Shown here piece by piece: positions 283 through 17,373 of a stretch of DNA of 64,000 bases. The DNA is from an uncultured Bacteroidota bacterium (GTDB lineage: Bacteria; Bacteroidota; Bacteroidia; Bacteroidales; SZUA-534). The position numbers and the translations under genes were made by a program. Each line of letters begins with the position of its first letter. The stretch's first letter is position 1. The notes beneath the pieces are model-generated. The model was not told the origin of the DNA. It worked only from the letters and a program-made list of their open reading frames with translations, and did not search any database. The stretch spans positions 5,932 to 69,931 of the forward strand of contig CAMJCK010000011.1 of assembly GCA_946404125.1 (NCBI GenBank), given 5' to 3'.

Positions 283-300
283 AACAATCTTGCAAAATTG

Positions 301-308: not shown

Positions 309-312
309 CATT

Positions 313-372
313 ATGAAAACAATCCAAGTCTCTGCCGCCATAATCCACGACCACGCCGGCCGCACTCAATAA
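313..372 (+). pseudogene. Truncated 5' duplicate of the downstream MutT-like NUDIX gene (MKTIQVSAAIIHDHAGRTQ*)
   Basis: 313-364 matches 1830-1881 at 46/52 nt. Homology ends 1 nt before the stop codon of the inserted AAA gene. Confidence 0.85.
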
Positions 373-1574
373 AGAAATCCAAACAGCCAAAGCGGAATTT
401 TATTGCCGAGAACATATTCCTCGTCCGATGCGGCGATGAAACTGTTGGCAACGCCCGCAATCTGCCGCCCGTCTTTCGAACGTCCGCCAACCTCAACGGT
501 AATTTGGTGGTCGATTGTGAAGTCGGCTGAAGTTTTGCTATATTCAACAGTATGATTGACAGATAATTGGTTGACAAAAAACACTTCGCGCAGAGTACCC
601 TCATTCACTTGTGTGCTGCATAGTGCGTACAATAGATTAGGGTTGTCAAGATAGATTTTGTCGGGTTTTTGCAACCGTTTGACGCTGTTTACATCAGAAT
701 AAAGCAGGCTGATAAGTCGCGCATCGGCCAGATACTGAATATATTGCAGCAATGAGTTTCGCGAGATTCCAACCAATGTGGCAAGTTTCACGGTGTCGAG
801 TTTGAATGGTAGCGAAGAAGCCAAGATGGAAAGCAAAGCCTTGATTTTCCGGTTGTTGGCCACATCAAACTGTCTCAGTTGGGGTAGTTCGGCATCAATG
901 GTGTTGTTCACAATGTTCTCAATCCGAGCGTAGTAATTGTTGCGCCCCTCTTTTTGGAATGGAAAACATCCATATTGCAAATATTCGGCAAATAATGGAA
1001 GTGGTCGCATCCGTGCATTAACTGCGGCGCATATGCTGTTGCCATTGGCCAGCACATCGTCGAGTGTGACGACGGGGAAATCTTCGCCGTAAAACATACG
1101 CAGATACTCGCGGAACGACAGGCAAGGCATAAAGTATGTAATGCAACGGCGCGAGAGGTCGGCTTCGCCATCGGTCAGGTTGCAAAGCGATGAGCCACTT
1201 ACAACAAAATGCATATCGGTAAACTCGTCATAGGCATTTTTAATTTCGATGTTCCAGTTTTTGTAGAAATGAACCTCGTCGAGAAAAAGGTGCGTGCCGC
1301 CCATCGCGTGAAAACGCTCAATAAACTCAAGCAGACCGTGGTTGCTGAAGTAGATATTGTCAAGGCTGATGTAAAGCACATTTGTGGTGTCGGTTGTACC
1401 GAAAACCTGTGCAATGCGTTGCGTCATCAGTGTGGTTTTGCCCACGCCGCGCTGTCCTTTAATCATCACAAGCCTCTCGTTCCAGTCGATTTTGTCCATC
1501 ATACTTCTGACAAAATCCAGACTGACATTTTGCATCCGGTTCAGGTGCCGTCTAATAAGAGTTTCCATATCCAT
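366..1574 (-). CDS. AAA+ ATPase, AAA_14 + DUF4143-like family
   Basis: Walker A GQRGVGKT, Walker B LFLDEVH, SGSS sensor, KIYLDNPNL, and a C-terminal D-F...EVGG restriction-endonuclease-like tail; 402 aa. Confidence 0.88.
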   Translation of the reverse strand: MDMETLIRRHLNRMQNVSLDFVRSMMDKIDWNERLVMIKGQRGVGKTTLMTQRIAQVFGTTDTTNVLYISLDNIYFSNHGLLEFIERFHAMGGTHLFLDEVHFYKNWNIEIKNAYDEFTDMHFVVSGSSLCNLTDGEADLSRRCITYFMPCLSFREYLRMFYGEDFPVVTLDDVLANGNSICAAVNARMRPLPLFAEYLQYGCFPFQKEGRNNYYARIENIVNNTIDAELPQLRQFDVANNRKIKALLSILASSLPFKLDTVKLATLVGISRNSLLQYIQYLADARLISLLYSDVNSVKRLQKPDKIYLDNPNLLYALCSTQVNEGTLREVFFVNQLSVNHTVEYSKTSADFTIDHQITVEVGGRSKDGRQIAGVANSFIAASDEEYVLGNKIPLWLFGFLY

Positions 1575-1601
1575 TGGTTTTATTCCACAAATATAATTAT
1601 T

Positions 1602-1685
1602 TGTTCAATGCAATGAACATTTTATCTGAAATTTTGTTCAATATCTTGAACATTCTGTTTGCAAATATGTTCAATGCAGTGAACA
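1602..1685. promoter_or_regulatory. Three palindromic TGTTCA-N6-TGAACA boxes with exact 33-bp period (putative operators of the AAA gene)
   Basis: Boxes at 1602-1619, 1635-1652 and 1668-1685, next to a minus-strand -7 box TATATTTG (1588-1595). Confidence 0.7.
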
Positions 1686-1829
1686 TATTTGCCGCAATTC
1701 CTTTTTTTTGCGCCATTTGTGCTCGAAAAGCCAATCATTTTGTTTCCTTATAGAAATAAATTTAATGCATTTTTGCCCTTGCAATAGGCAGTTGCCAATT
1801 ATACATTTTAAAAGACAAGATTTTCCAAA

Positions 1830-2219
1830 ATGAAAACAATCACCGTTTCAGCCGCCATAATCCACGACCACGCCTGCCGCATATTCGCCACTCAGCGCGG
1901 GTATGGCGATATGCAAGGCGGTTGGGAATTCCCAGGCGGCAAGATTGAAGCCGGCGAAACGCCCGAAGCAGCACTGAAACGCGAGATTCAGGAAGAATTG
2001 GATACGCAAATAGTTGTTGAGCAATTCATTACTACCATCGAATACGATTACCCCAAATTCCACCTTACAATGCACTGCTATTGGTGCCGTGTCGCGAGCG
2101 GCACTCTGACACTTAAAGAGCACAAAGCCGCCCGTTGGCTCGCAGCCAAAGATTTAGACACGGTTGACTGGCTGCCGGCGGATAAAATCGTAGTGGAAGA
2201 AATCAAAAGACGGTTGTAG
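1830..2219 (+). CDS. mutT: MutT-like NUDIX (deoxy)nucleoside triphosphate pyrophosphohydrolase
   Basis: Nudix box WEFPGGKIEAGETPEAALKREIQEEL; C-terminal WLPAD; 129 aa. Confidence 0.85.
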   Translation: MKTITVSAAIIHDHACRIFATQRGYGDMQGGWEFPGGKIEAGETPEAALKREIQEELDTQIVVEQFITTIEYDYPKFHLTMHCYWCRVASGTLTLKEHKAARWLAAKDLDTVDWLPADKIVVEEIKRRL

Positions 2220-2270
2220 ACATAAAGTTTTGCAGGCTTTTACGGCCAAACCATATCCACAATCATTAAC

Positions 2271-2290
2271 AAGCGGATTTAAATCCGCTT
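2271..2290. repeat. Perfect 20-bp REP-like palindrome AAGCGGATTTAAATCCGCTT
   Basis: Self-reverse-complementary, intergenic, 51 nt after the mutT stop. Confidence 0.6.
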
Positions 2291-2688
2291 AATCTATATT
2301 AATGCGGCAGGTTGAGGAAAAACAGCTATTCCGGCTTTATAAATAAATTGTAATAGCCCCAAACTCCGACGCATTTTTGCGCAAATCGTCACCAACCAAT
2401 CCGAAAAAATCCTCTTAAAAACGTTTCTGCGCATTCTGATTTTGTCAGTAAAGGGCGTGGGTAAAAACTTGTTTTCAACAAAATTCAGTGAAAAAGTCAG
2501 TTGACAAAATTATTTTTCCGGTTAACGGTATGTTATTAATGTGTTGATTAATAGATGTTTGTAAATCGACGTTTTGCTTGCGTATTTATAACATCTTGGA
2601 AATTAGAAAAATATTTTTGCGAATAGTTGCATTTTTAAAACAAGAGTCCTATATTCGTGGCGTTTTTCAAACAACACATTTTTTTATT

Positions 2689-3417
2689 ATGCCATACAGG
2701 AGATTACCTAACACGGATAGTGCGCGTTTGCGTGCAATGCAAAAAGCGCTTTCAAAATCGGAGGATGTTTTGCCGATGGATTTGCCGTACAGCGCGGCCA
2801 CACTTCAGGAGTTGCGCTATTTTCTGCCCGAATTCAATCAGGCAATTATGATGCAGCGCGATGTGTTCGAGCGTCAGACTTCGAAAAACAAACAGCATCA
2901 GGAGAGCTTCCGCAAGGCGCGGCTTTATATATCGCATTTCATTCAGGTACTGAACTTTGCAATCGCTCGTGGCGAGATGAAACCCGACACCCGCAAGTAT
3001 TTCGACCTGCCGTCGGACGAGACCAAGCTGCCGCAACTCAACACCGAGCGCGATGTGATAGAGTGGGGCCAGAAGCTTATTGATGGCGAGCAGAAGCGCT
3101 TGTCGGAGGGCCTGTCGCCTGTCACAAACCCCACAATTGCCCGCGTTAAGGTTCATTATGAGGATTTTGTGCGGCTCAATATCTCGCAGAAGGGACTGCA
3201 AGAAAACAACGCCAAGGCTTTGGCCAAGATTTCGGAGCTGCGCGGCCGGGCCGACAGCATTATCCTTGATTTGTGGAACGAGATTGAGGACCATTTCAGC
3301 AACAACGCGCCGGCCGTCAAACGTGAAAAGGCCGCTGAGTATGGTGTGTCGTATGTCTTCCGCAAAGGCGAAAAGGCTGACGCTGAGGAAGACGAGATTG
3401 ATTTGAAGTTGTTTTGA
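2689..3417 (+). CDS. Conserved hypothetical alpha-helical protein (Bacteroidota MPYRRLPNTD family)
   Basis: ATG at 2689 gives MPYRRLPNTDSARLRA, an N-terminus I recognise from Bacteroidales hypotheticals. Codon usage is host-like and a terminator follows. Confidence 0.75.
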   Translation: MPYRRLPNTDSARLRAMQKALSKSEDVLPMDLPYSAATLQELRYFLPEFNQAIMMQRDVFERQTSKNKQHQESFRKARLYISHFIQVLNFAIARGEMKPDTRKYFDLPSDETKLPQLNTERDVIEWGQKLIDGEQKRLSEGLSPVTNPTIARVKVHYEDFVRLNISQKGLQENNAKALAKISELRGRADSIILDLWNEIEDHFSNNAPAVKREKAAEYGVSYVFRKGEKADAEEDEIDLKLF

Positions 3418-3455
3418 CGGTTTTCGCAACTGTCTTTACAAATATCGCTGGATTT

Positions 3456-3483
3456 AAAAGGCGGGACAATGTCCTGCCTTTTT
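3456..3483 (+). terminator. Rho-independent terminator
   Basis: AAAAGGCGGGAC-AAT-GTCCTGCCTTTTT hairpin with U tract. Confidence 0.7.
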
Positions 3484-3542
3484 GTTTCTGATGAATTGAA
3501 CACGCAAATTTTCTATTTTTGCATTATTAAATAGTGTTACAG

Positions 3543-4163
3543 ATGAATTGCAAGACATTGACAATCAGCATAGGCCGTCAGTTTGGCTGCGGCGGCAGGG
3601 TTATTGGTCAGCGGTTGGCCGAGGAGTTGGGCTACGACTATTTCGACAAGGAGCTGCTGGCGCTGGCGGCAAAGGAGATTGGCTTTGAGCCGTCGGTGTT
3701 TGAGGAAATCGACGAGCAACCGCAAAAAGGTATCTTTCAGTCGTTTGGCGAGTTTGTGTCGATGCTCAGCCCGACCGACAACTATATGTCCGACGACCAT
3801 CTGTTCAAGGTGCAGAGCGATGTTATCCGCCGCCTGGCCATTGAGCGCAACTGCGTGATTGTGGGCCGCTGTTCCGACTATATTCTGCGCGATTTTCCGA
3901 ACTGCATCAGTGTTTTCTTGCACGCCGATTTGCCCGACCGCATCAAGCGTGTCTGCGCCCGGATGCCTATTGAGCAGGACAAGGCCCGCGCCCTGATTGA
4001 GCGCAACGACAAGCGCCGCGCCACCTATTATAATTACTATTCGAACAAGACCTGGGGCCGTGCTGAGACCTACGATTTGTGCCTTAGCGTGTCGCGGCTC
4101 GGCGTTGAGGAGACCGTGGCCGCCATCATCGATTACGTTAACCGGATGAAAGCGAGGCTGTGA
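3543..4163 (+). CDS. Cytidylate kinase-like family protein (Cytidylate_kin2)
   Basis: TISIGRQFGCGGRVIG P-loop variant, CVIVGRCSDYIL, RRATYYNYY, WG...YDLCL motifs. Confidence 0.85.
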   Translation: MNCKTLTISIGRQFGCGGRVIGQRLAEELGYDYFDKELLALAAKEIGFEPSVFEEIDEQPQKGIFQSFGEFVSMLSPTDNYMSDDHLFKVQSDVIRRLAIERNCVIVGRCSDYILRDFPNCISVFLHADLPDRIKRVCARMPIEQDKARALIERNDKRRATYYNYYSNKTWGRAETYDLCLSVSRLGVEETVAAIIDYVNRMKARL

Positions 4164-4177
4164 TTAATGGGGGGAGA

Positions 4178-4313
4178 GGTAAGAGTTTAGAGTTTAGGAA
4201 TTGTACCCGACACCAAATAATTGTTTAATCGGTGAATTGTTTAATCGGTGAATCGTTTGTTTGACCACAGACTTCAGTCTGTGGTCGTAATTCGTAATTC
4301 AAAATTCGTAATT
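4178..4313. repeat. Composite intergenic repeat cluster (short tandem units plus a 24-bp hairpin)
   Basis: AGAGTTT x2, TTGTTTAATCGGTGAA x2, GACCACAGAC-TTCA-GTCTGTGGTC (4263-4286), and TAATTCG units. Confidence 0.65.
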
Positions 4314-4387
4314 AACCAACACCCAATACCTGCCCCCTAACCATTACACTCTACTCTTTACTCACTACGCTTTACTCAAAAAATTTC

Positions 4388-4395
4388 TACCTTTG
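4388..4395 (+). promoter_or_regulatory. -7 promoter box TACCTTTG
   Basis: TAnnTTTG consensus about 20 nt upstream of the CCA-enzyme start. Confidence 0.55.
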
Positions 4396-4414
4396 CGGCT
4401 CAATTGGCAGTTTG

Positions 4415-5824
4415 ATGAAGGAATACCTTAACAATATCATTTTCAAAACAATATCGCAGATATTGGGCGAACGCGACCAGCAGGCTTTTGTCATTGGAGG
4501 GTTTGTGCGTGACAAGTTGCTCGGCCGTCCGTCGAAGGATATTGATGTGGTGACGCTTGGCAGCGGCATTGAGCTGGCGCAGGAGGTGGCCCGGCGGCTG
4601 CTGAAGAATCCGAAGGTGGCGACATACAAGAATTTCGGCACGGCAATGTTCCGCTATCGTGGTGTGGATGTGGAGTTTGTGGGCGCTCGCAAGGAGTCGT
4701 ACAACCGCAACTCGCGTAAGCCGGTGGTTGAAAATGGCACACTCGAAGACGACCAGCGCCGACGCGATTTCACCATCAACGCCTTGGCCATCGACCTTCA
4801 TCCCGACCGTTTTGGTCAGCTGGTGGACCCGTTCGGCGGCATCGAGGACTTGAAAAATCAGATTATCCGCACGCCGCTCGACCCCGACACCACCTATTCC
4901 GACGACCCGCTGCGTATGCTGCGCGCCATCCGTTTTGCCAGTCAGCTTGGCTTCCGCATCACCGATGAGTCGCTCGACTCGATTGTCCGCAACCTCGAGC
5001 GCATTCGAATCATTTCAATGGAGCGCGTGTCGGAGGAGTTCAACAAGATTATGCTGTCGCCACGTCCGTCGGCAGGTATTAAACTGCTGCAAAAGGTTGG
5101 CCTGCTGGCGATTGTGTTCCCGCAACTCGAGGCGCTGAAAGGCATTGAGGTGGTTGACGGCTGCCGCCACAAGGACAATTTTTACCATACGATGGAAGTG
5201 CTCGACAACATCTGCGAGCATACCGACGACCTTTGGCTGCGTTGGGCCGCGCTGTTGCACGACATTGGCAAGCCAGTCACCAAACGCTACGTGAAGGGTA
5301 CCGGCTGGACATTCCACGGCCACGAGTTTGTGGGCGGCAAGATGGTCCCCGGAATCTTCAAGAACCTGAAACTGCCGATGAACGAGAAGATGAAATACGT
5401 TCAGAAGCTGGTGATGCTGCATATGCGGCCCATTGTGCTGGTTGAGGAGATTGTCACCGACAGTGCCGTGCGCCGTCTGCTCTTTGAGGCCGGCGACGAC
5501 ATTGATGACTTGATGCTGCTCTGCGATGCCGACATCACATCGAAAAATCCCGACAAGGTGTCGCGCTATCTTGATAATTATCAGCTCGTAAGGCGCAAAT
5601 TGGTTGAGGTGGAGGAGAAGGACCGCGTGCGCAACTGGCAGCCACCAATAACGGGAGAGACCATCATCGAGACGTTTGCCCTGCCGCCGTGTCCCGCCAT
5701 CGGCATCATCAAAAGTGCCATCAAAGACGCCATTCTCGACGGCGTGATTGAAAACACACCGGAGGCGGCTTATCAGTTTATGCTGCAGAAAGGCGAGGAG
5801 TTGGGCTTGAAACCTGTGAAATAG
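4415..5824 (+). CDS. cca: CCA tRNA nucleotidyltransferase / poly(A) polymerase family with HD domain
   Basis: [33 protein letters not shown] and LLHDIGKP motifs. Confidence 0.9.
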
Positions 5825-5880
5825 GGTGATTGTGAATTAGTTGCAAAGGAATAAGTGTTAATTCCTAAATCCTAACTATC

Positions 5881-6381
5881 TTAATATTGGTCTTTCAGCA
5901 AGATGTAGTTCCGTGCCGATTGCTCAATCATTTCGCTGTTTTTCAACTCTTTGACTTTGGTGGCAGGAACACCTGCGTAGATGAATCCCGATTCAAGAGT
6001 GCGGCCGCCCAGAACAAGAGCGTTGGCCGCGACAATGGTTCCAGACTCAACCACTGCGTTGTCCAGAACCGTGGAGCCCATCCCGACAAGGACATAGTCT
6101 TTTATGATGGCGCCGTGCACAATGGCGTTGTGCCCGATGGTCACATTATTGCCGATGATGGTTGTTGAAACGCCTTCGGAGCTGTGAATTACCACGCCGT
6201 CCTGCACGTTGGTGTTGTTGCCGATGGTGATGGCGCCCGCGTCGCCGCGCAGCACGCTGCCGTACCAGATGCTGCAGTTGTCGCCAATCTCAACCTCGCC
6301 GATGATAGTTGCGTTTTCGGCAATAAAACAGTTGGCGCCAATGCGTGGCGTGAATCCGTTAAACGATTTTATGATAGCCAT
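5881..6381 (-). CDS. Gamma carbonic anhydrase family hexapeptide-repeat protein
   Basis: SIWYGSVLRGD, NVQDGVVIH, TIGHNAIVHG motifs. Confidence 0.9.
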   Translation of the reverse strand: MAIIKSFNGFTPRIGANCFIAENATIIGEVEIGDNCSIWYGSVLRGDAGAITIGNNTNVQDGVVIHSSEGVSTTIIGNNVTIGHNAIVHGAIIKDYVLVGMGSTVLDNAVVESGTIVAANALVLGGRTLESGFIYAGVPATKVKELKNSEMIEQSARNYILLKDQY

Positions 6382-6402
6382 TTGTGTGTGATTGAGCCGT
6401 TG

Positions 6403-6804
6403 TTAGAAGGCCACAAAGTTGATTGGACACTTGATTAGGTCGGTGAATTCCTTGCCCGTCTCAAGCATATCCTCGTCCTCTTTTTTGTATTGCCACTCAA
6501 TTGCGACTTGCAGTCCGCTCTCAAATAACTTGTTGATAAGCAGTACAATATCCAAAATGTATTTGGCAGATGACGAATTGAAATAGTCGTAGCAGAGTTT
6601 GAAAACCATCGGATTTTGGGCCGTTTTTGCCTTCAGCTCATCGTTGATATTTCGCTTAATATCTGTCAGCCAGTCAATAAGTTGCCCATAGAATGCCACT
6701 ACGTCCTCGGGGCGCGAGCAGCCTTTAATCTCGTACCGGTTGTTGTCGAAGTCGAAAAGTACCGACGGGGTGGTGCTTGTCCTTTCAATCTTGATGATTT
6801 CCAT
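6403..6804 (-). CDS. SiaC family regulatory phosphoprotein (DUF1987)
   Basis: TP-V-FD, GCSRPED...FY, YFNSSSAK, WQY..EDEDMLETGKEF; 133 aa. Confidence 0.85.
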   Translation of the reverse strand: MEIIKIERTSTTPSVLFDFDNNRYEIKGCSRPEDVVAFYGQLIDWLTDIKRNINDELKAKTAQNPMVFKLCYDYFNSSSAKYILDIVLLINKLFESGLQVAIEWQYKKEDEDMLETGKEFTDLIKCPINFVAF

Positions 6805-6808
6805 AATT

Positions 6809-7324
6809 TTACTGTTTCGGTTGGTCTGTTATGCTAATGGTGAAATTGATGTTCGAGCTCTCGCTGTCAATCGGTTCAACGGTGTATTTGATAGGCTCGC
6901 GCGAGCATCTAAGAATCTTCATCAGTCCAAGTCCGGCGCCGCCTTTCTCCGATATGTGCCCCTCGTGTATCGTCTTGCTGTAAAGCGCTTTAACTTCATC
7001 AAGCGACAAATTGTTCAGCTTGTCGATACGGTCGGTGAGTTGTTTCAAATCTTTGTTACCCACGCGGTTGCCAACGGAGAGCGAATAGTGTAATCCGTTT
7101 TGTATCAGCGAAAGCTTAATCTGCGGATTTTGCTCAGGGGTGTTGATGTTGAAATTGTGCCGGTATGCGTTTTCGAGCACCTCAACCATTATCGAAAACA
7201 TCCTGATTTTGCACTTAGGGCACTGAGTCTCAGGCATCCGCTGGTTGAAGAGTATCAGCAATTCCTCAATCTTTTCAAAGGTAATCTCACCTTCGTATTC
7301 CATTAATTGTTTGTAATCGTTCAT
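6809..7324 (-). CDS. SiaB family GHKL-type Ser/Thr protein kinase (DUF6272)
   Basis: YEGEIT, FSIMVEVLENAYRH (N-box-like) and KGGAGLGL (G-box); 4 nt from siaC. Confidence 0.82.
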   Translation of the reverse strand: MNDYKQLMEYEGEITFEKIEELLILFNQRMPETQCPKCKIRMFSIMVEVLENAYRHNFNINTPEQNPQIKLSLIQNGLHYSLSVGNRVGNKDLKQLTDRIDKLNNLSLDEVKALYSKTIHEGHISEKGGAGLGLMKILRCSREPIKYTVEPIDSESSNINFTISITDQPKQ

Positions 7325-7423
7325 CTTACAGCTGCTAAATTAGCTATTTGGTCAATGCCGTAATACTACTGTTTTTTGTTGAAAAAAACAACCCCCTAAT
7401 GTCCTTTTGCGTGTTTTTCGGAA

Positions 7424-8578: not shown

Positions 8579-8592
8579 TTTATTTCAAGCCG

Positions 8593-8670
8593 CAAAGTTA
8601 TAAAAATTGGTTAACTGAAATTAACTATTCTCTTGCATCAAACACTTGTAATTCGAACTGCATATATTTG
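8593..8670. promoter_or_regulatory. Divergent -7 promoter boxes for the pseudouridine synthase and mntP genes
   Basis: TAACTTTG on the minus strand (8593-8600) and TATATTTG on the plus strand (8663-8670). Confidence 0.55.
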
Positions 8671-8687
8671 CGGCAAAATTTTCGCGT

Positions 8688-9245
8688 ATGAGCATCTTCG
8701 ATATTCTCATCATTGCCGTTGCGCTGGCAATGGACTGCTTTTCGGTGTCGGTGGCCGCGGGTGTGGCCATTGAGCGCCCGCGTTTTCGCACGGTGCTGGT
8801 TATGGCCGTTTTCTTCGGTGGTTTCCAAGGGCTTATGCCGGTTATTGGTTGGCTCACCGGTGGCAGTGTTGCTCATCTTATTCAGGCATTCGACCATTGG
8901 GTGGCTTTCGGTTTGTTGGCGTTCATCGGCGGAGGAATGATTCGAGAGTCGCTCGCGGGCGAGGAGAATAGGCCGCTTGATGTTACCAGAGTCAAGACTC
9001 TGTTTGAGCTTGCCGTCGCCACCAGCGTTGATGCTCTTGTGGTGGGTGTCGATTTGGGACTGATGCAGAACGCATTGGTTGTGCCGGCACTGATTATCGC
9101 CGCAGTGTCGTTCCTGCTGACGATTGTCGGTTTTTACCTTGGCGTTTATTTCAAGCGCATCTGCAAGTTCAACTTCGGGCTAGTCGGCGGCATTGTCCTC
9201 ATCTGCATCGGCCTGAAGATACTCATTGAGCACTTGATGAGCTGA
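8688..9245 (+). CDS. mntP: Manganese efflux pump MntP family
   Basis: ALAMDCFSVSV, FGGFQGLMP, DHWVAF, ATSVDAL motifs; about 6 TM segments. Confidence 0.9.
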   Translation: MSIFDILIIAVALAMDCFSVSVAAGVAIERPRFRTVLVMAVFFGGFQGLMPVIGWLTGGSVAHLIQAFDHWVAFGLLAFIGGGMIRESLAGEENRPLDVTRVKTLFELAVATSVDALVVGVDLGLMQNALVVPALIIAAVSFLLTIVGFYLGVYFKRICKFNFGLVGGIVLICIGLKILIEHLMS

Positions 9246-9282
9246 TGATTGTGATTGGTTATTACTGTGGACTTTTGTCCAA

Positions 9283-11406
9283 CTATCTTGCACCCAGTTC
9301 TTTAATCAATATCTCGTCAATGCTGCATTTTTTCTCTTGCGACTTTTTGATTGACGCCAAAATACGTTTGTCATCGTTCAGCCAAGTGTTAAGATTGACA
9401 GCGTTGTAGCGATTCCGATTCTCAAACACAGCACGTCTGGTAATGTCAGTATATGCGTTCTCAAAATAATTATCGGGAATCTTTTTCGTGTTTATTGGGA
9501 TATGTGAAATGTAGTCGTAGGCCAACCCGAAATGTTTTTTATTATATTGAGAAACAGCCATATTATAGAGGGCCGGCTGGTTTTCTGATGATATATTCAA
9601 CACTCGCTCGCAAGCCATAATTGCGTCATCATATTGTTCGCATTTTATGTACGATGTGCTTAGTGCCAAGAGCGTCAAAATGTGGTATGGTGCCACCTCC
9701 AAGGCCTGGTTAAATGCCACAATCGCAGCTTTGTCGTTGCCGCTCATCGACAGGGCAATACCCCTGAAATATAGTGTCGGAGCAGTGTAATTGTTGACAG
9801 TGTATGATTGCTGGTCGGCTTTGCGTGTCATCAGAATTACTTTTTGCCAATCTCCTTTGTAATAGTTTTTTAAGAGTTTTAGGTTTGCGTTTTCCCCGTC
9901 GTAGAATTGCAGCGATTGCACAAGTCCCACAATTGCAATGGCCGTGCAGAAGGCTATCAGCGCGGCAGTCGGAGCGATTTTGCGCTGTTCGGTGTTTTCG
10001 CTTTCGTTGCGATTGTCGGTCAGCACAATAGCGCAGAGCGAGAGCAGGACCAGATTGTGCTCAATGCGTTCGTGCGGATAGTCGAGCAACGAAACGAATA
10101 TCCATCCAATCAAAGCTGATACGGCTAAAACATTGAACGTTAGTATGCTTTTGTCGTTAGTCCGTTTAATGTTGGAATAGCCTATGGCAATAATTCCGAC
10201 AAAGAACACCAAATATCCTAACAGACCGATGATTCCTACCTCCGAGGCGAACCAGAGATAATCGTTGTGGGGGCGCTGGTAGGTCAAAGAGCCCTCGCGC
10301 AGTTTCTCGCCGAACTCGTCCACCCCGTATTTCGGAATCATAATCTGCCATTGTCCCGGACCCGAACCAATCAGCGGATGTTCTTTAATCATATCGATAG
10401 TCTTCTCCCAGATTATCTTGCGCATTGCCACCGACGATTCTCCGTGTTCGTTGTCGCGGTAACCGTATTTCTCTGGATTAATGGTCAGAAGGAAGCGTTC
10501 TTTTATGGTTTGCTCGATTTGCGTGTCGGTCAGGCTTACAATGCCAACACCTACGATTATTGCTGCTACTGGAGCCGCAATCAGCGCGATTTTTATACGT
10601 TTGTCAGTAGGTTGCCCTGTTTTACGCGGTTTGATGCGCAGCATATACACATATAATATAATAGCGGCAACGCCTGCCGATAGCAGAATTGCTCCAATCA
10701 CAGTACGGGTGAGCAAAAACGTTACTAAAGTCAAGTTGCTAATAACGATGATTATGCCAATACCAAACCATACCGCAGAGGTTATGCTATGCCGTTTAAG
10801 GTTGAAAATGTGGTAGATGGCTGTCGGCAGTGTTATGAATAGCAGCGATGCCAGAAGGTTTTTGTTTGAGCAGGTTGAGTAAATCCCCTCCATTATCTGG
10901 GTTAGATAGTACGACCTGTGCTGAGTGGCGGCTCTGTATTTGCTGAAATCGGCATTAGCCAGCTGCACTAAGGCTATGCCGATGAAAATGGCGCTGGTCA
11001 CTGTAATGGTCTTAATCAGAATATCGCGCATCTGCGGGTTGGCCTTCAGCATCTGATAAATCACAAAGAACCACATACATAGCATAAACTCTTTTGCGAT
11101 GTGGAAAAATGCCTCGTGGCCGTTAATCACGTTCACACACGAAACAATGTGCATTAGCATAAAAAGCGCCATTCCACCAAATATCACCGATTCGGTGCGG
11201 TCAAAGCTGAAACGTCCGCCTTTAATTGCGTAAATTACCATAATAGGTATCGATGCAAGCAAAAATACGGATAGTGCTACTTGGCGGGGCATAAGTGATG
11301 CGTCCATCATTGTGTCATCAGCCCATATGGTTGGAATTATGAGCATAAAAACCGAGGTTAATACGCCCGGAATCAAATTCTTGATTTTTTCAAACGAGAT
11401 ATTCAT
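9283..11406 (-). CDS. O-antigen ligase (Wzy_C)-like polytopic membrane protein with C-terminal TPRs
   Basis: Many TM segments; R..IW...MIKEHPLIGSGPG, PHNDYLW..SEVGIIG; TPR-like C-terminus. Confidence 0.82.
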   Translation of the reverse strand: MNISFEKIKNLIPGVLTSVFMLIIPTIWADDTMMDASLMPRQVALSVFLLASIPIMVIYAIKGGRFSFDRTESVIFGGMALFMLMHIVSCVNVINGHEAFFHIAKEFMLCMWFFVIYQMLKANPQMRDILIKTITVTSAIFIGIALVQLANADFSKYRAATQHRSYYLTQIMEGIYSTCSNKNLLASLLFITLPTAIYHIFNLKRHSITSAVWFGIGIIIVISNLTLVTFLLTRTVIGAILLSAGVAAIILYVYMLRIKPRKTGQPTDKRIKIALIAAPVAAIIVGVGIVSLTDTQIEQTIKERFLLTINPEKYGYRDNEHGESSVAMRKIIWEKTIDMIKEHPLIGSGPGQWQIMIPKYGVDEFGEKLREGSLTYQRPHNDYLWFASEVGIIGLLGYLVFFVGIIAIGYSNIKRTNDKSILTFNVLAVSALIGWIFVSLLDYPHERIEHNLVLLSLCAIVLTDNRNESENTEQRKIAPTAALIAFCTAIAIVGLVQSLQFYDGENANLKLLKNYYKGDWQKVILMTRKADQQSYTVNNYTAPTLYFRGIALSMSGNDKAAIVAFNQALEVAPYHILTLLALSTSYIKCEQYDDAIMACERVLNISSENQPALYNMAVSQYNKKHFGLAYDYISHIPINTKKIPDNYFENAYTDITRRAVFENRNRYNAVNLNTWLNDDKRILASIKKSQEKKCSIDEILIKELGAR

Positions 11407-11661
11407 TGTTGATAGCTATTTGCCGCAAAAATAATTTTCATTTTGTAACATATATATATATGAGGCATTATTTTCCCGTTAAACGGGATTTGTTGCTGAT
11501 GCATTGAAAGATAATAATTGCCGATTTGTCTAAAGATGATGGCCGTTGGTTTGAAAAAAAACATTTTTTATAAAAAAAAAGCTGATACACGTTCGTATGT
11601 AATGTTTTTTAGTACTTTTATTGCAGTTTCTGTTATGAAAAATTATAGAAGATTGAAGGTT

Positions 11662-12168
11662 ATGAAACGTATATTAATTTTGATTTTTGCAATCGTTAGC
11701 GTTAATATCTGCATCGCTCAGGATGCTAAATACAAGGCTATGTTTATCTACAACTTCACAAGGCAGATAGACTGGCCTGCAAGTGAGAAAAGCGGCGATT
11801 TCATAATTTGTGTGGTTAATCAAAACGAGATTCTTAATTATCTCAAAACAGCCGTCAATGGTAAAATGGTTGGAACTCAGCCGATTACGGTGGTGGGAGT
11901 GAAGTCGGTCGATGAAATTTCGAAATGCCACATTCTTTATTTGTCGTTCGCCGACAGCAAAGCAGACAAACTTGATGCTTTGGTTTCAAAGTTGGGCAAT
12001 TCGCCGTCGCTGATTGTAACCGACCGTCCCGGCTCGCTGAAACACGGAGCGTGCATCAATTTCCTGATGATGGACGATGTGCTGAAATTTGAGTTGAACA
12101 AGGCAGCGGCAACCGACCGCAAACTGCAGGTTAGCGCGCAACTTGAGGGCAAGGCATATAACAACTGA
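11662..12168 (+). CDS. YfiR family (DUF4154) exported protein
   Basis: Signal peptide MKRILILIFAIVSVNICIAQ; KAMFIYNFTRQIDWP, CHILY, INF...LKFELN motifs. Confidence 0.82.
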   Translation: MKRILILIFAIVSVNICIAQDAKYKAMFIYNFTRQIDWPASEKSGDFIICVVNQNEILNYLKTAVNGKMVGTQPITVVGVKSVDEISKCHILYLSFADSKADKLDALVSKLGNSPSLIVTDRPGSLKHGACINFLMMDDVLKFELNKAAATDRKLQVSAQLEGKAYNN

Positions 12169-12192
12169 AGCCAGGCAGACGAAAAAATGAAC

Positions 12193-12221
12193 AGACATCC
12201 ACTTGTGGGTGTCTTTTTTTT
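12193..12221 (+). terminator. Rho-independent terminator
   Basis: AGACATCCAC/GTGGGTGTCT stem followed by a T8 tract. Confidence 0.7.
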
Positions 12222-12386
12222 GCTTTGCCCAAAGCTCTTGAATAGTGGGCTTCCGGCGTCGGTTGGGACTAAAAAAACGGGATTTTTTAAGGTCGTTGAA
12301 TAAAAAAAAATAAAAATGCCGATTTTGTGGGGCTTACCTAAATAAAAATTCTATTTTTGGTGTAAAACAAATAAATGTTTTAAGCA

Positions 12387-14390
12387 ATGAATGCTCGTCT
12401 TACAATTTCTAATAAACTGCTTATCGGTTTTGGCTCGGTGCTTTTGGTTGTAATCGCCAATGGCTTGGTAACTTATTCAACATCAAATGCTAACAGAAAG
12501 CTCAACGAGGACATCCTTAACATCTACAATCCCTCGCTGACAGGTTTGAACGAGTGCAATGCGATGGTGAACAACTCGCAGATGCTTATCAAAAACTGGG
12601 TTTGGATTGACCAAACTCCCAACACTCCCGACAAACGCAAGCTTCAGGCAATGCACGATGTGCAGTTTCCGAAGCTTCAGGCGGAACTGATGGAGATTTC
12701 GAAAAACTGGGAGCCGGAGGAACGTGAGGCCCTTGTTTCGATATTGACAAGTATCAGCGATACGCTGTTCAGCTACCACAAGGAGATTATGAACAGCCTG
12801 AAGTCGCTGCTCGACTATAATGACCAGTTCATTAAGATGGATGCGGAAATGAAAGTCGAAGAGGGCGGAGAGGTTATTGAAGCCACTTATAAAATATTGG
12901 AGCGGGTTGAAGCACTCACCGAGGTGATATCGAAAAAGACTGAGGATGCCAATAAGGAGATGGCCGCCTCGTTCGCCTGGTTCCAGAACTTCGTGGTTTA
13001 TTCGGTGTTTGTTATCGTGATAATTGTTCTGATAGTCAGCATTCTGACAGCACGAAGCATCGTTGTCCCGGTTTACAAACTGAAGGAATTCCTGATTACA
13101 ATGACCAAAGGTATCCTGCCAAAAGACAAGCTGGTTACCAACAATGATGAAATTGGCGATATGGGTGATGCTCTGAACGGCTTTATTGAGTCGTTGCGGA
13201 GGACATCGGAATTTGCAGTTGAGATTGGTAATGGTAATTATAATTCTGAATATGAGGCTCTTGGTGAGGAAGATACGCTTGGTAATGCGCTTCTTGAAAT
13301 GCGCAAGAACCTGCGCAGTTCCGATGAGGCCAACAAGAAACGCCAGCGTGAGGACGAAATCCGCAACTGGACAACCAAGGGCTTGGCAGATTTTGGTGAC
13401 ATTCTGCGCCACAACTCAGAAAATATGGATGTGCTGTCGAGCAATGTTATGCGTCATTTGATTGACTATCTTGGTGTCAACCAGGGTGCAATTTACATTC
13501 TGAACGAGCAAGACCCCGACAACCAGTTCTTCGAGATGAAGAGTGCGGTGGCTTACAACCGCGAGAAATACCTGAAGGTGAATTTCGGCACTACCGAAGG
13601 ATTGGTTGGCCGGTGCGCATTTGAGAAACTGCCTGTATATCTGAAAGAAATTCCTGAAGAATACATCAAACTTACATCAGGTTTGGGCGGTGCCGAGCCG
13701 AACTACCTGCTGCTGGTTCCATTGGTTATCAATGAGAAGGTGCTTGGTGTGGTTGAGTTGGCTTCGTTCAACGAAATACCTCAGTATCAGATTGATTTCT
13801 TGCAAACCTTGGGCGAGAATATCGCATCAACAATATCGAATGTGCGGATTACCGAACAGACCAACAAGCTACTGTCGGAGTCGAAGATGAGAGGCGAGGA
13901 GCTGTCGTCGCAAGAGGAGGAGCTGCGCCAGAATATGGAGGAGCTTCAGGCAACACAGGAGGAGTCGGTTCGTCGCGAAAGCGAAATGCGCCTGGCTATG
14001 GACGCCATCAACAACACGCTTGGCACTATCGACATCGATATGAACGGCACAGTGATGGCAGTCAACGATATGATGCTGCGCTTGTCGCACGTTGACATAA
14101 ACGAGTTTGTCGGCAAGCAGTTTGTCGACCTTTACGTCCACTCGGAAGAAGACCGTGAGCGTTTTGAGGAGGCGTGGTCGAAAGTTTTGATGGGTGATAG
14201 CTGCAATTACGAGGTTACCAGCAACTTCCAAGGAATAGAGGTTACATTCACGCATTCGCTCACTCCGTACATTAATCAAATGGGCGATGTGGAGCGCGTG
14301 TTCGACCTTGTGGTGAATACAACAGGGCAAAAGGAAATTAACGCGAAAATCACGGCATTAGCAGCTTCATATAATAAGAGTAAGGCATAA
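12387..14390 (+). CDS. Membrane sensor: TM - helical periplasmic domain - TM - HAMP - GAF - coiled coil - PAS, with no recognisable output domain
   Basis: Two TMs; HAMP DEIGDMGDALN; GAF GLVGRCAFEK...LLLVPL...VLGVVELAS; QEEELRQNMEELQATQEE coil; C-terminal PAS. Confidence 0.8.
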   Translation: MNARLTISNKLLIGFGSVLLVVIANGLVTYSTSNANRKLNEDILNIYNPSLTGLNECNAMVNNSQMLIKNWVWIDQTPNTPDKRKLQAMHDVQFPKLQAELMEISKNWEPEEREALVSILTSISDTLFSYHKEIMNSLKSLLDYNDQFIKMDAEMKVEEGGEVIEATYKILERVEALTEVISKKTEDANKEMAASFAWFQNFVVYSVFVIVIIVLIVSILTARSIVVPVYKLKEFLITMTKGILPKDKLVTNNDEIGDMGDALNGFIESLRRTSEFAVEIGNGNYNSEYEALGEEDTLGNALLEMRKNLRSSDEANKKRQREDEIRNWTTKGLADFGDILRHNSENMDVLSSNVMRHLIDYLGVNQGAIYILNEQDPDNQFFEMKSAVAYNREKYLKVNFGTTEGLVGRCAFEKLPVYLKEIPEEYIKLTSGLGGAEPNYLLLVPLVINEKVLGVVELASFNEIPQYQIDFLQTLGENIASTISNVRITEQTNKLLSESKMRGEELSSQEEELRQNMEELQATQEESVRRESEMRLAMDAINNTLGTIDIDMNGTVMAVNDMMLRLSHVDINEFVGKQFVDLYVHSEEDRERFEEAWSKVLMGDSCNYEVTSNFQGIEVTFTHSLTPYINQMGDVERVFDLVVNTTGQKEINAKITALAASYNKSKA

Positions 14391-14410
14391 GGAGTAACGC
14401 TACAAAATAG

Positions 14411-14448
14411 AAGCGCGGAAAATCGCTTGCCGACTTTCCGCGCTTTTT
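14411..14448. terminator. Terminator hairpin between convergent genes
   Basis: AAGCGCGGAAA...TTTCCGCGCTT followed by T-rich sequence. Confidence 0.7.
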
Positions 14449-14468
14449 CTGTTTTAATGGTTTCAATC

Positions 14469-15929
14469 TTACTTCACAGGCACATTCTTCAGCGTCTCGA
14501 CCACCCAGCGGAAGAAACGCTCAACCGACGCAATGTTGACTGCCTCGTCGGGTGAGTGCGGGTGAACCAGGTGCGGACCGCAGGCCACCATATCCCAATT
14601 GGGGTATTTCGAGCCCAGAATGCCGCATTCCAAACCTGCGTGAACGGCCTTGATTTCGGCTTCTTTTCCGAACACCGAAACCGAAGTGCGGCGCATCACG
14701 TCGAGAATGGCCGACTTCATATTCGGCTTCCAGCCAGGGTAGCCGCCGTCGAATTCGGCCTCGGCTTCGGCCATATTGAACACGCAGCGCATCTGCTCGG
14801 CCAAATCGGCTTTTGCCGACTCAACCGACGAGCGCAACAGACTCTTAACCACAATCTTATCGCCTTCGAGTTTCACAATCGCCAGGTTCGACGACGTCTC
14901 GACCAAGCCCGCAACATCGGCGCTCATTCGGGCCACGCCGTTGGGGCAGGCATAGACGGCCTTTGTCAGGCGGCTGCCAACGCCGTCCGATATGGCCTTT
15001 TCGGGCATTGCCGCGGGCTCAATGCTGACGCGCAAATCGGGGTCGACGGTGTTGAGTTCCGATTTGACAATCTGCTCATATTCAGCCACATCGGCAGCAA
15101 TCTTGTCGGCATAGAAATCGGGCACCAGAATGGTGGCGAACGCCTCGCGCGGAATGGCGTTGCGCAGACTTCCGCCCTGAATGTCGGCCAAACGGACGCC
15201 AAACTTCGCCATAGCGCCGTTCAAATATCTGAAAATGATTTTGTTGGCGTTGCCGCGACCAAGGTTAATGTCGATTCCCGAATGTCCGCCGCGTAAGCCC
15301 GTGACGCTCAGTTTGAACGCCTTGTGGTGCTCGGGCACGGGTTTCAATTTGGCGTCGAAAGTGAAGGTTCCGTTGACGCCGCCAGCGCAGCCCACGCAGA
15401 GTTCGCCCTCGTCCTCATAGTCGCAGTTGATAAGCATATCGCCCTGCAAAACTCCTGATTTAATGCCATTTGCGCCAGTCATTCCCGTTTCCTCGTCGCA
15501 GGTGAAAAGCGCCTCAAGCGGGCCGTGCGCAACATCTTTAGACGCCAGAATGGCCATTGCCGTGGCCACGCCCATACCGTTGTCGGCGCCCAGGGTTGTG
15601 CCAGTGGCCTTCACCCATTCGCCATCGACGCGCGGCTGCACGGGGTCGGCAAGCCAGTCGTGACGGACATCGCTGTTGGCCTGCGGCACCATATCCATAT
15701 GGCCCTGCAGAATGACGCCGCGGCGGTTTTCCATTCCAGGCGTTGCGGGCTTGCGGATTATCACGTTGCCAATCTCATCGGCAAAAGCCTCAAGACCAAG
15801 GTTTTTACCAAAATCGAGAAGAAACTTGCGCACCTTTTCCTCGTGCTTCGACGGACGCGGCACTTGCGTCAGTTGGTAGAAATAGTCCCAAACCGCCTTG
15901 GGTTCGAGATTCGATAGTGGATTACTCAT
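14469..15929 (-). CDS. pepD: Aminoacyl-histidine dipeptidase (M20C)
   Basis: PRPSKHEE, LQGHMDMV, TTLGADNGMG, DEETGM, GGHSG, HAGLECG, HSPDE motifs. Confidence 0.95.
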   Translation of the reverse strand: MSNPLSNLEPKAVWDYFYQLTQVPRPSKHEEKVRKFLLDFGKNLGLEAFADEIGNVIIRKPATPGMENRRGVILQGHMDMVPQANSDVRHDWLADPVQPRVDGEWVKATGTTLGADNGMGVATAMAILASKDVAHGPLEALFTCDEETGMTGANGIKSGVLQGDMLINCDYEDEGELCVGCAGGVNGTFTFDAKLKPVPEHHKAFKLSVTGLRGGHSGIDINLGRGNANKIIFRYLNGAMAKFGVRLADIQGGSLRNAIPREAFATILVPDFYADKIAADVAEYEQIVKSELNTVDPDLRVSIEPAAMPEKAISDGVGSRLTKAVYACPNGVARMSADVAGLVETSSNLAIVKLEGDKIVVKSLLRSSVESAKADLAEQMRCVFNMAEAEAEFDGGYPGWKPNMKSAILDVMRRTSVSVFGKEAEIKAVHAGLECGILGSKYPNWDMVACGPHLVHPHSPDEAVNIASVERFFRWVVETLKNVPVK

Positions 15930-15935
15930 AGTATT
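15822..15935. repeat. 114-bp direct repeat, copy 1 (pepD 5' end plus 6 nt upstream)
   Basis: Identical to 17108-17221 (offset 1286). Confidence 0.95.
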
Positions 15936-15970
15936 TTTGATTTTGATAGTGTATGTAGTTGATTTATAGA

Positions 15971-17059
15971 TTAATAATCATTTAATTGTGCTTCTATTTC
16001 TCCGATTGTCGGAATCATTCCTTCTACTTTGGTCGGATATAGTTTTTCCAACTCAAATTCTGAAATCCCAATAGGTTGACTACTACCTTCGAGTGAATAT
16101 TGTGCAATAGTATTGTCTTTCGACTTGCAGACGAGCAAACCTATGGTCGGATTGTCGTCGGGGCGTTTGAGTATATGGTTGCAAGCCACCACATAAGTAC
16201 TCAACTGCCCGATATCGCCAGGCGAAAACTTCTCAACTTTAACTTCGATTACAACATAACAACGCAGTTGCAAATGATAAAACAATAAATCGATAAAATT
16301 CTCTGTTTCACCTATTTGTAAACGATATTCCTTACCAACGTAGGCGAATCCAGTTCCTAACTCTATAAGAAAATCGGTTATGTTTGATAGCAAAGCCTTT
16401 TTGAGCAACGATTCGTTGTATTCGCCACGAATTTCAGCAAACGCAAAGTTGTAAGGGTCTTTTGTTATTTCTTTGGCAAGACCACTCATAGCATCGGGAA
16501 GCGTAACTTCAAAATTGTTTATCGCCTTGCCTTCGCGCTCATAAAGGTTTGTGTCAAGGAAATTTAACAGCATTGCACGGCTCCAGCCGTTTTCAACGGT
16601 TTTGTGAACAAAGAACAATGCCTTTCCAACATCACCGCCACATTTATCGATAATGTAACGGTGGTGCCCCCAAGGTATTGAAAACAAATCGCTTCCTATT
16701 TTTCCCACAAGTTGTGGGATTTTTTCGGACTCTAATTTTCCTACAAGTTGTGGGAATATTTCAGTTTCTTGATTATAAAGAAGATAGAACTTTTTGCAAT
16801 AGTAAATGTTCGATTTAGAAAAACCTTCCACATTGGGTAATTCGTGCTTCAAATCGTTGCTCAACTGCATTATCACGCTTTCGCCCCAACGTTCCTCGAT
16901 ATGCATCTCAACAATATCGCGACCAAGTAACCAATTGAACAGCAACTTTTCCTGATTTACCTTTATTGCCGCCTTGATTTGGCAATGACGATACCGAACC
17001 GAAAGTTCTTTCAGCCATTGCTTGTATTCCGAGTCAATTACGGATATGTTCCTGCTCAT
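15971..17059 (-). CDS. DUF1016 / YhcG family PD-(D/E)XK nuclease domain protein
   Basis: WG..VI.QLS.DL, GFS.SN, IPWGHH, KDPYNF, ELGTGFAYVG, IDLLFY...VVIEVK, NPTIGLLVC motifs; AT-rich. Confidence 0.92.
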   Translation of the reverse strand: MSRNISVIDSEYKQWLKELSVRYRHCQIKAAIKVNQEKLLFNWLLGRDIVEMHIEERWGESVIMQLSNDLKHELPNVEGFSKSNIYYCKKFYLLYNQETEIFPQLVGKLESEKIPQLVGKIGSDLFSIPWGHHRYIIDKCGGDVGKALFFVHKTVENGWSRAMLLNFLDTNLYEREGKAINNFEVTLPDAMSGLAKEITKDPYNFAFAEIRGEYNESLLKKALLSNITDFLIELGTGFAYVGKEYRLQIGETENFIDLLFYHLQLRCYVVIEVKVEKFSPGDIGQLSTYVVACNHILKRPDDNPTIGLLVCKSKDNTIAQYSLEGSSQPIGISEFELEKLYPTKVEGMIPTIGEIEAQLNDY

Positions 17060-17095
17060 AAATACTTGTCAATTCAAGATTCATTCTGTTAAATA

Positions 17096-17215
17096 TCAGC
17101 ACGTTTCAAACTTGCGCACCTTTTCCTCGTGCTTCGACGGACGCGGCACTTGCGTCAGTTGGTAGAAATAGTCCCAAACCGCCTTGGGTTCGAGATTCGA
17201 TAGTGGATTACTCAT
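17096..17215 (-). pseudogene. Truncated 5' copy of pepD (first 36 codons, then ETC*); repeat copy 2
   Basis: 17108-17221 is identical to 15822-15935; TGA stop at 17096-17098. Confidence 0.9.
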
Positions 17216-17373
17216 AGTATTGTTGTTTTTGAATTTCTAAATGTTCATACTATTGATTTCAAATGTTTTAACGGTAAATCGAATTAGCCGTAAATTGCTT
17301 TTCAATTTAAAAAATCATTTCAAAGTTTGAAAACAATTCGCTACATTTACGCATCACTAAAAAACTCACAATT

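Follow-up and report, generated by a model that had tools for sequence, protein, structure and literature searches.

Solitary genes between a gene stub and its intact copy in an uncultured Bacteroidales genome: probable footprints of one-sided recombination with relatives' DNA

How does a single accessory gene come to lie between the first codons of a host gene and a complete copy of that same gene? The question is raised twice within 17 kb by a 64,000-nucleotide (nt) stretch of contig CAMJCK010000011.1 (assembly GCA_946404125.1, positions 5,932 to 69,931 of the forward strand), which we call the window and which comes from an uncultured Bacteroidales bacterium. Its genome, G000, comprises 3.46 Mb on 102 contigs, and the congener genomes are designated G001 to G015; Cn denotes a contig of the given genome and Ln a locus stretch. 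At locus A the host gene encodes a NUDIX protein and the accessory gene, or cargo, an AAA_14 ATPase; at locus B the host gene is pepD-like and the cargo belongs to the DUF1016/YhcG family. Our answer is that each locus is probably the footprint of one acquisition by the recombination machinery of the host, and not a self-moving element. The mechanism that fits best, and that we consider the likely one, is homology-facilitated illegitimate recombination with DNA of a relative in which the cargo already stood beside the same gene.

Direct repeats were mapped by a repeat search of the window, after which their content was read from the sequence, and gene families were assigned by profile scan. 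At locus A, the repeat copies at 305-364 and 1822-1881 (60 nt, 85% identity) each consist of 8 nt of leader and the first 52 nt, that is 17 codons and one base, of the NUDIX gene. Between them lies a 1457-nt insert with a single gene on the minus strand (366-1574), encoding a 402-amino acid (aa) protein with an AAA_14 domain (E-value 1.8e-26) and a weak C-terminal match to DUF4143, at 25 bits below the cut-off of 28.1. Copy 1, on the plus strand, meets the 3' end of this cargo at the joint 364/365. Copy 2, also on the plus strand, opens the intact NUDIX gene (1830-2219, plus strand, 129 aa, E-value 6e-18), whose leader (1717-1829, plus strand) is linked to the cargo and differs from the native leader.

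At locus B, where all features lie on the minus strand, the repeat copies at 15822-15946 and 17108-17232 (125 nt, 98% identity) hold 17 nt of leader and the first 108 nt (36 codons) of the pepD-like gene. The intact gene (14469-15929, 486 aa) encodes an M20 dipeptidase with Peptidase_M20 and M20_dimer matches. Repeat search and alignment place its working start and 17 nt of leader in the copy beside the gene body, and this leader continues through 15947-15970 as cargo-linked sequence common to G000 and G001. The 1161-nt insert again carries a single gene, a 362-aa DUF1016_N and YhcG_C protein of the PD-(D/E)XK type (15971-17059, YhcG_C E-value 3e-57). The 48 nt 5' of this cargo (17060-17107) end at the joint 17107/17108, where they meet codon 36 of the stub; the stub, with its native leader, is continuous with native upstream DNA. 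Both repeats have exactly two copies in G000. The arrangement of truncated start, lone gene and intact gene that the first-pass annotation had described was therefore recovered at both loci, together with its observation that the host gene is left complete.

The alleles of the two NUDIX starts are different in origin. Copy 1 runs on from native upstream DNA and is the same at 52 of 52 coding nucleotides as the single copy in the empty-site genome G011, while copy 2 differs at 6 of the 52 from both copy 1 and the native alleles. The repeat search and the congener alignment mark copy 2 as a putative donor-type allele. Its foreign 5' end and the cargo-side leader recur together in remnants of the structure elsewhere in G012 and G004, hence in three genomes including G000, and the leader at 1717-1829 is ∼83% identical to that of a second NUDIX gene in G011. 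When the NUDIX gene was compared with that of the closest congener, G012, the mismatches per 60 nt counted from the ATG were 7, 6, 10, 1, 1, and 5. This single comparison suggests a donor tract reaching ∼180 nt into the gene, ∼130 nt beyond the end of the repeat. Empty sites, in which a single NUDIX copy continues upstream and cargo A finds no match, were present in six congeners (G011, G012, G004, G009, G010, and G001). The whole structure was found in G008 at 80% identity and, with an internal deletion of the cargo, in G003. By these alignments the NUDIX "duplication" is a resident copy plus an apparently imported foreign allele, and not a true target duplicate.

A similar reading applies to pepD. 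Four congeners (G004, G012, G002, and G015) have empty sites with a single start that continues upstream, and cargo B is not present there; empty-site alleles in close relatives, which the first-pass annotation had proposed to look for, thus exist at both loci. In the alignment, the stub and its upstream flank match the empty alleles of G004 and G012 column for column and are one base off that of G002. The leader of the working copy differs from that of the stub and is the same in G000 and G001, although the native upstream sequences of these two genomes differ. G001 carries the same DUF1016 cassette at ∼94-96% identity, with its joint likewise at codon 36, and the structure occurs in an independent metagenome contig at 98.6%; the joint 17107/17108 is shared by both. 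At either locus, therefore, the stub is, as far as the aligned alleles tell, the resident copy. Since other congeners (G003, G007, G008, and G014) carry other DNA, without a repeat, at this spot, the site upstream of pepD is a hotspot; in G003, G007, and G008 this DNA includes members of an unannotated multi-copy family.

The clearest view of a joint came from a sister locus on G000:C31, for which both donor-like and recipient-like alleles are available. Here a 56-nt repeat with 100% identity surrounds the 3' end of an acetyltransferase gene and a Na/Pi-cotransporter gene. The recipient-like allele in G004 is empty and consists of the 5' part of the gene, one repeat copy, another 3' end, and then a decarboxylase gene. 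The donor-like alleles, in G008 and G014 at 97%, have the G000-type 3' end followed by the transporter and no second repeat copy. Past the transporter, the DNA of G008 and G014 reads ...TGGCAGCGGCAG and then diverges from G000. In G000, the switch from donor-like to recipient-like sequence falls within TGCCAGCGGCAG, the first 12 nt of the repeat, and lies inside TG(G/C)CAGCGGCAG, a 12-nt microhomology with 11 of 12 positions matching. The pattern, as read from these alleles, is what would be expected from a homologous crossover upstream and an illegitimate joint at the microhomology, and the repeat exists because the donor and recipient genes cease to resemble each other 56 nt after the microhomology. 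Two further loci have comparable allele sets. At the 3' end of clpB, G004 carries cargo after clpB with one repeat copy, the contigs of G012 connect into an empty site, and an imported 12-codon tail accompanies the repeat in G000 and G003. For a 179-nt repeat at another gene 3' end, G001 and G010 are empty, in G011 and G007 the cargo adjoins the gene, and the repeat ends exactly at the stop codon.

These loci belong to a larger set. A blastn comparison of G000 against itself revealed ∼25 similar cassettes, in which locus-specific direct repeats surround 0.7-3 kb. Counting isolated two-copy repeats (35-260 nt, identity of 84% or more) that were separated by 300-5000 nt within a contig, we found 23 in direct and 0 in inverted orientation. 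The control, pairs on different contigs for which orientation is arbitrary, gave 68 direct and 62 inverted, so the local repeats exceed chance. Likewise, an exact-word scan gave 12 direct against 1 inverted for spans of at least 30 nt, and 93 against 88 at 14-19 nt; a hidden class of 20-29-nt repeats was considered and rejected, the 4 direct and 2 inverted cases being background. Excluded from the ∼25 were repeats within one gene (C2 90403 and C4 86405), tandem paralogues (C9, C18 1-2910, C74, C76, and C13), and unclear cases (C12 50773, C35, C58, C82, C94, and C24 13411). The cassette repeats are 35-234 nt long and 84-100% identical, and the local pairs occur only as their own two or three copies. 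They span the starts of genes, 3' ends of genes together with terminators, intergenic hairpins, and in one case a gene interior; in the loci that we read, one boundary often lies at or near a start or stop codon.

The cargos are equally varied. We identified four ATPase_2/AAA_14 genes of ∼475 aa, two AAA_14-DUF4143 genes, one DUF1016 gene, one Schlafen-AlbA_2/HATPase_c_4 gene, a PIN toxin pair, a HepT/MNT pair, an ORF6N/RhuM/KilA-N trio, an ArsP permease, a Na/Pi cotransporter, an isochorismatase with an acetyltransferase, a peptidyl-arginine deiminase, an outer-membrane beta-barrel, and a WG-repeat protein, as well as ∼eight cassettes whose genes have no Pfam match. With such diverse cargos, and with repeats also at 3' ends and in intergenic DNA, the tie to PD-(D/E)XK cargo and to gene starts that the first-pass annotation had drawn did not hold. 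Two contigs, C52 and C33, contain arrays in which repeat and cargo alternate (repeat-cargo-repeat-cargo-repeat). The count of young cassettes is probably too low, because perfect repeats longer than 55 nt would break contigs: 56 pairs of contig ends in G000 overlap by 40-85 nt, nearly all among those listed by exactly 55 nt, a signature of an assembly graph built with k = 55. Repeats are in fact found at several contig ends (C18, C33, C39, and C61).

In the mechanism that we favor, DNA of a relative whose cargo gene is already adjacent to NUDIX or pepD would enter the cell, we infer by transformation or conjugation. One end of the incoming DNA would recombine homologously inside the shared gene, and the other end, lacking a homologue, would join illegitimately a short way inside the resident copy of the gene, probably at a microhomology of a few bases. 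Since the imported piece would bring a full gene start and leader with it, what remains of the resident start would be a stub of 17 or 36 codons. One boundary of the repeat would then be the end of the likeness between donor and recipient, namely the gene start, and the other the illegitimate joint. Once formed, the structure would spread among congeners by ordinary homologous recombination and decay by deletion. Such events would be expected to place a boundary at or near a start or stop codon, to yield repeats of varied length, to require no enzyme or ends of the cargo's own, to leave the neighbor intact, and to produce nested fragments at hotspots. That the same mechanism acted at both window loci is suggested by analogy with the sister locus on C31 and by the allele patterns. 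Homology-facilitated illegitimate recombination anchored in the host gene had been the first candidate named in the first-pass annotation, and it is the best fit to the resident stubs, the foreign NUDIX start and leader, and the three alleles at C31. ComEC and DprA homologues are present in G000; the same families also match non-competent control genomes, so their presence is only permissive.

Several observations weigh against this reading. Neither window locus has a donor allele among 40 relatives, and none was found in the 80 best DUF1016 loci (one genome per species) or by an exact-word scan of metagenome contigs. For pepD, the proteins of those 80 loci are at most 73% identical to cargo B except for the G001 equivalent, and the exact 20-nt metagenome scan returned the same structure only. 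The ∼180-nt donor tract at NUDIX depends on the comparison with a single congener, G012; relative to G004 and G011, divergence is ∼9% and even along the whole gene. The coding copies at pepD are identical, so only the leader marks the working copy as foreign, and the mismatch profiles of pepD and clpB against the congeners show ordinary mosaicism only, with no crossover located. Repeats bracket DUF1016 and DUF4143 genes at a higher rate than genes of the one control family, which a purely passive model explains only by high turnover. Lastly, the duplications seen after conjugation into Escherichia coli, as given in the accessible part of PMC3240628, make a circular route a serious alternative.

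In that alternative, a Campbell-type insertion-duplication, a small circle carrying the cargo and a 52- or 108-125-nt piece of the neighboring gene would integrate by a single homologous crossover and could later loop out and re-enter. We regard it as unlikely, though it is the strongest of the rivals. A single crossover with a circle yields exactly the repeat-cargo-repeat architecture. In E. coli, when a conjugated plasmid had homology on one side only, 56 of 60 clones had duplications as diagnosed by polymerase chain reaction (PCR); in 14 sequenced clones these measured 109-950 bp and were ascribed to one crossover involving a truncated circular molecule, and true illegitimate-joint events were rarer than duplications in the same work (all from the portion of PMC3240628 available to us). 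The repeat-cargo-repeat-cargo-repeat arrays on C52 and C33 also suit a circle, and the fact that local repeats below ∼30 nt rise little above the inverted background would fit a minimum length of homology. The alleles, however, point the other way. Across the repeat, the NUDIX stub is native throughout and the working copy foreign throughout, and the foreign-like divergence that continues ∼130 nt past it, in the comparison with one congener, cannot come from 52 nt of circle homology. At C31, donor DNA beyond the cargo meets the recipient gene at a 12-nt microhomology, as would be expected of a linear event with two ends. The circular route would thus fit the NUDIX alleles and the C31 joint less well than a linear event does, although at other loci it may have acted.

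A second rival is a true long target duplication promoted by the cargo. PD-(D/E)XK or other cargo proteins would break the target, and repair would copy 35-230 nt on both sides. The same architecture is known from type I-IV restriction-modification systems, for which double-strand breakage has been suggested, according to the part of PMC2853133 that could be consulted. The frequency of bracketing in other genomes bears on this explanation. Of the 80 best DUF1016 loci, 71 were flanked on each side by 700 nt or more; direct repeats bracketed the gene in 16 loci, and 10 of the 71 were tight single-gene brackets of 34-269 nt. Once L115, whose repeat reads as an hsdS conserved region, was dropped, 9 of 71 loci with 8 different targets remained; the G001 cassette (L086), with its short flanks, was counted apart. 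For DUF4143, each family of the order was represented by one genome, and 6 of the 23 usable loci lay between direct repeats of 29-96 nt. The one control family, PF00144, which comprises ordinary enzymes, had direct brackets in 1 of 25 loci and inverted ones in 1 of 25, and bracketing inverted repeats numbered 0 in both the DUF1016 and the DUF4143 loci. Fisher tests against PF00144 yielded p = 0.038 for DUF4143, 0.21 for DUF1016, and 0.10 for the two pooled. The cross-genome test proposed in the first-pass annotation is positive in the raw frequencies, but the excess over the control is weak.

Within G000 itself, 7 of 26 AAA_14, ATPase_2, or DUF1016 genes are bracketed, against a rough ∼1% of all genes, a figure that assumes ∼2,900 genes and ∼38 cargo genes, both estimates. 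These families are over-represented among the cassettes relative to all genes rather than to genes of like turnover. The brackets in G000 and in the survey speak for a part played by the cargo. What makes cargo-promoted duplication rather improbable is the remaining evidence: non-nuclease cargos (ArsP, Na/Pi, the outer-membrane barrel, the isochorismatase with acetyltransferase, and the WG-repeat protein) sit in the same kind of brackets; the cargo-side NUDIX copy is a foreign allele with a foreign leader; at clpB and C31 the cargo arrived with a foreign gene tail; in the loci that we read, one edge of the repeat is often found at or near a start or stop codon, the point at which genomes cease to be homologous; and the pooled enrichment is weak. 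We give about the same low credence to a related idea, that solitary DUF1016/YhcG, AAA_14-DUF4143, and ATPase_2 genes raise their own rate of capture by nicking or breaking the landing site or the incoming DNA and, being flanked by repeats, can loop out and re-enter relatives. If that were true, such genes would form a recombinase-free selfish class whose only "ends" are borrowed pieces of host genes. Nuclease-assisted homing, the second candidate of the first-pass annotation, found no direct support here, and we saw no evidence of cargo-driven homing.

Some details of the surveyed loci stand apart from this question. Certain DUF1016-locus repeats take in the ribosome-binding site and the opening codons of the gene downstream, which in one case is presumably, by a motif, a cytosine methylase; others cover the last codons of a large upstream gene. 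In L109, L115, and L117, from Bacteroides and Bacteroidaceae, the repeats translate as what we take to be conserved regions of type I specificity (hsdS) genes, and the DUF1016 genes there would sit inside type I restriction loci. If this reading is true, hsdS repeats mimic the footprint and must be excluded from surveys.

That a site-specific recombinase or a transposase integrated the cargos in trans, using the repeats as attachment sites or leaving them as target-site duplications, is highly improbable. Integrative elements that target gene ends and supply a replacement end do give similar direct repeats, and IS200-like and HUH-type enzymes are encoded elsewhere in G000. Nevertheless, the repeat pairs have no further copies in the genome and vary from 35 to 234 nt, and the 17-kb stretch holds no recombinase gene. 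None of the 19 open reading frames (ORFs) scanned from window positions 1-19317 matched an integrase or transposase family, and the ORF at 2578-3417 matched no family at all. Across 25 cargo segments genome-wide, terminal inverted repeats turned up in one, as a marginal 10-nt match, and no motif shared by the cargo ends rose above shuffles. On these counts the first-pass annotation, which had noted neither integrase, transposase, nor terminal inverted repeats, was right. We also considered the cargos as a transposing family and rejected this, since the paralogues in G000 share only 64-80% coding similarity and no common ends.

An assembly artefact can be dismissed as having a negligible chance, for although G000 is a fragmented short-read assembly of 102 contigs whose ends overlap by 55 nt, and repeats of this size can mislead assemblers, the two repeat copies differ in sequence, the same structures recur in G001, G003, G008, and the independent metagenome contig (98.6%), and metagenome contigs from two further studies span cargo B and run into both repeats. 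Low cover of cargo A among the contigs of four public runs, and a 1516-nt skip (15935 to 17452) in one run, are not interpretable.

Several other features of the two loci and their surroundings were noted. The palindromes that the first-pass annotation had reported are present: three palindromic units of the TGTTCA-N6-TGAACA type, spaced by 33 nt, lie 25-125 nt 5' of the cargo A start codon (1599-1699), and two 36-nt tandem units lie inside the DUF1016 coding sequence of cargo B (16696-16767). The units at 1599-1699 are probably, from their position, the operator array of a self-regulated cargo A promoter, and they are partly kept in the G008 cassette (80% identical). Directly 5' of the NUDIX stub, window positions 1-282 are the 3' end of a Schlafen-group-3-type helicase gene. 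Other genes in 1-19317 include a cytidylate kinase, a poly(A)-polymerase-type nucleotidyltransferase with an HD domain, a pseudouridine synthase, and an O-antigen-ligase-like protein. Nested NUDIX fragments occur 5' of the NUDIX gene in G004:C24 (L067, 3131-3523 and 6167-6752) and G012:C9 (L066, 3153-3595). In these genomes they comprise a stub, a second start truncated at 32 nt, and a fragment of the gene body, and they look like debris of successive insertions and deletions. The second NUDIX gene of G011 (G011:C16, L065, 1626-3690) stands head-to-head with a C5 DNA methylase gene. It was rejected as a donor arrangement, its neighbor being this methylase and not an AAA gene.

The multi-copy family met upstream of pepD encodes a protein of ∼215-258 aa with no Pfam match (for instance, G000:C4:3278-4309, L020 2269-3042), with many 66-75% DNA matches per genome in 15 of 15 congeners. 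Its members also lie beside pepD in G011 and after clpB in G004, G015, and G001. As for individual cassettes, on G000:C52:16909-20571 (L024) three 58-nt repeat copies, each containing a hairpin, separate an AAA_14-DUF4143 and an ATPase_2 gene; three copies imply two captures at one spot. On C33 (8790-11184), a similar array of three copies contains small genes, a DUF6572 gene among them. On G000:C51:3422-6880 (L023), an IS200-like Y1 transposase gene is followed by ORF6N, RhuM, and KilA-N between 83-nt repeats, with a C5 cytosine methylase just downstream. A Phage_CRI gene, encoding a filamentous-phage-type replication initiator, lies inside a 53-nt direct repeat of 85% identity on G000:C58:16641-17680 (L025 2063-2986); judging by this gene, the locus may be a small integrated single-strand DNA element rather than a capture footprint.

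The entry of single accessory genes without mobility genes is rarely visible in natural genomes, and G000 offers ∼25 readable footprints of it. These indicate that "long target duplications" can arise without machinery encoded by the element, from a crossover in a shared gene and an illegitimate joint inside that gene. They also offer a testable route by which defence-type solitary genes (DUF1016, AAA_14-DUF4143, and ATPase_2), as well as ordinary genes, could spread among rumen Bacteroidales while their neighbors are left working. The G001 equivalent, recorded as a metagenome-assembled genome from water-buffalo omasum, and the public runs in which the sequence occurs place this lineage in the rumen or gut of ruminants. 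For annotation, a short gene stub before a lone accessory gene should be taken as a mark of capture and not as a pseudogene of concern.

How does this compare with known systems? Homology-facilitated illegitimate recombination is said to have been described by de Vries and Wackernagel in 2002 and Prudhomme et al. in 2002, in cases that reportedly mostly delete recipient DNA. Our loci would share with it the homologous anchor on one side, and C31 shows the illegitimate joint at a 12-nt microhomology on the other. They differ in that the joint falls inside the region shared with the donor, which leaves part of the recipient gene in place as a second copy. Circular single-crossover insertion-duplication, as far as the accessible text of PMC3240628 describes it, likewise flanks the insert with a partial gene duplication; it needs a circle containing only the duplicated segment, however, and the linear event is the better match to the NUDIX alleles and the C31 joint. 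For the gene arrays of type VI secretion system (T6SS) effector-immunity genes and of Rhs and contact-dependent inhibition (CDI) toxin tips, homology-facilitated illegitimate recombination is invoked in the available portion of PMC5361080. There, too, successive captures at one conserved gene leave orphan fragments, but those arrays form at the 3' end of one toxin family, whereas here unrelated housekeeping genes are involved, at either end. A site-specific integrative element has an integrase and a conserved attachment core, and a DNA transposon has inverted ends, a fixed short duplication, and a transposase; the present loci show none of these, and the cassette repeats of G000 range over 35-234 nt.

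The closest precedent is insertion with long target duplication, for which Nobusato et al. 2000 is reportedly a source. In the part of the account by Furuta, Abe and Kobayashi 2010 (PMC2853133) that we could consult, one or a few genes with no mobility gene lie between direct repeats of >30 bp to ∼420 bp, the empty site has a single copy, and the duplication often spans a start or stop codon and spares the target gene. The cases given there are restriction-modification genes in Helicobacter, Haemophilus, Neisseria, Campylobacter, and others, and the repeats are read as target duplications, possibly from DNA breakage by the cargo (PMC2853133). The repeats of more than 30 bp unique to their locus, the empty sites, the lack of mobility genes, and the insert of less than 20 kb are the same here, so the suggestion in the first-pass annotation of an undescribed mobility system is not supported. 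The differences lie in the cargos, which are AAA_14/weak DUF4143 and DUF1016/YhcG rather than restriction-modification genes, with many non-nuclease cargos elsewhere in G000; in the lineage, a rumen Bacteroidales; and in the copies themselves, one of which is a foreign allele at NUDIX, whereas at pepD the coding copies are identical and only the leader differs. In the partly accessible literature that uses both terms, we did not find a link stated between long target duplication and homology-facilitated illegitimate recombination, and no title or abstract opening among the DUF1016/YhcG matches listed concerns a repeat-flanked architecture. Taken together, the architecture itself is known; what is new here is the cargo families and the lineage, and what our analysis adds is allele-level evidence that the "duplication" is one resident and one imported copy.

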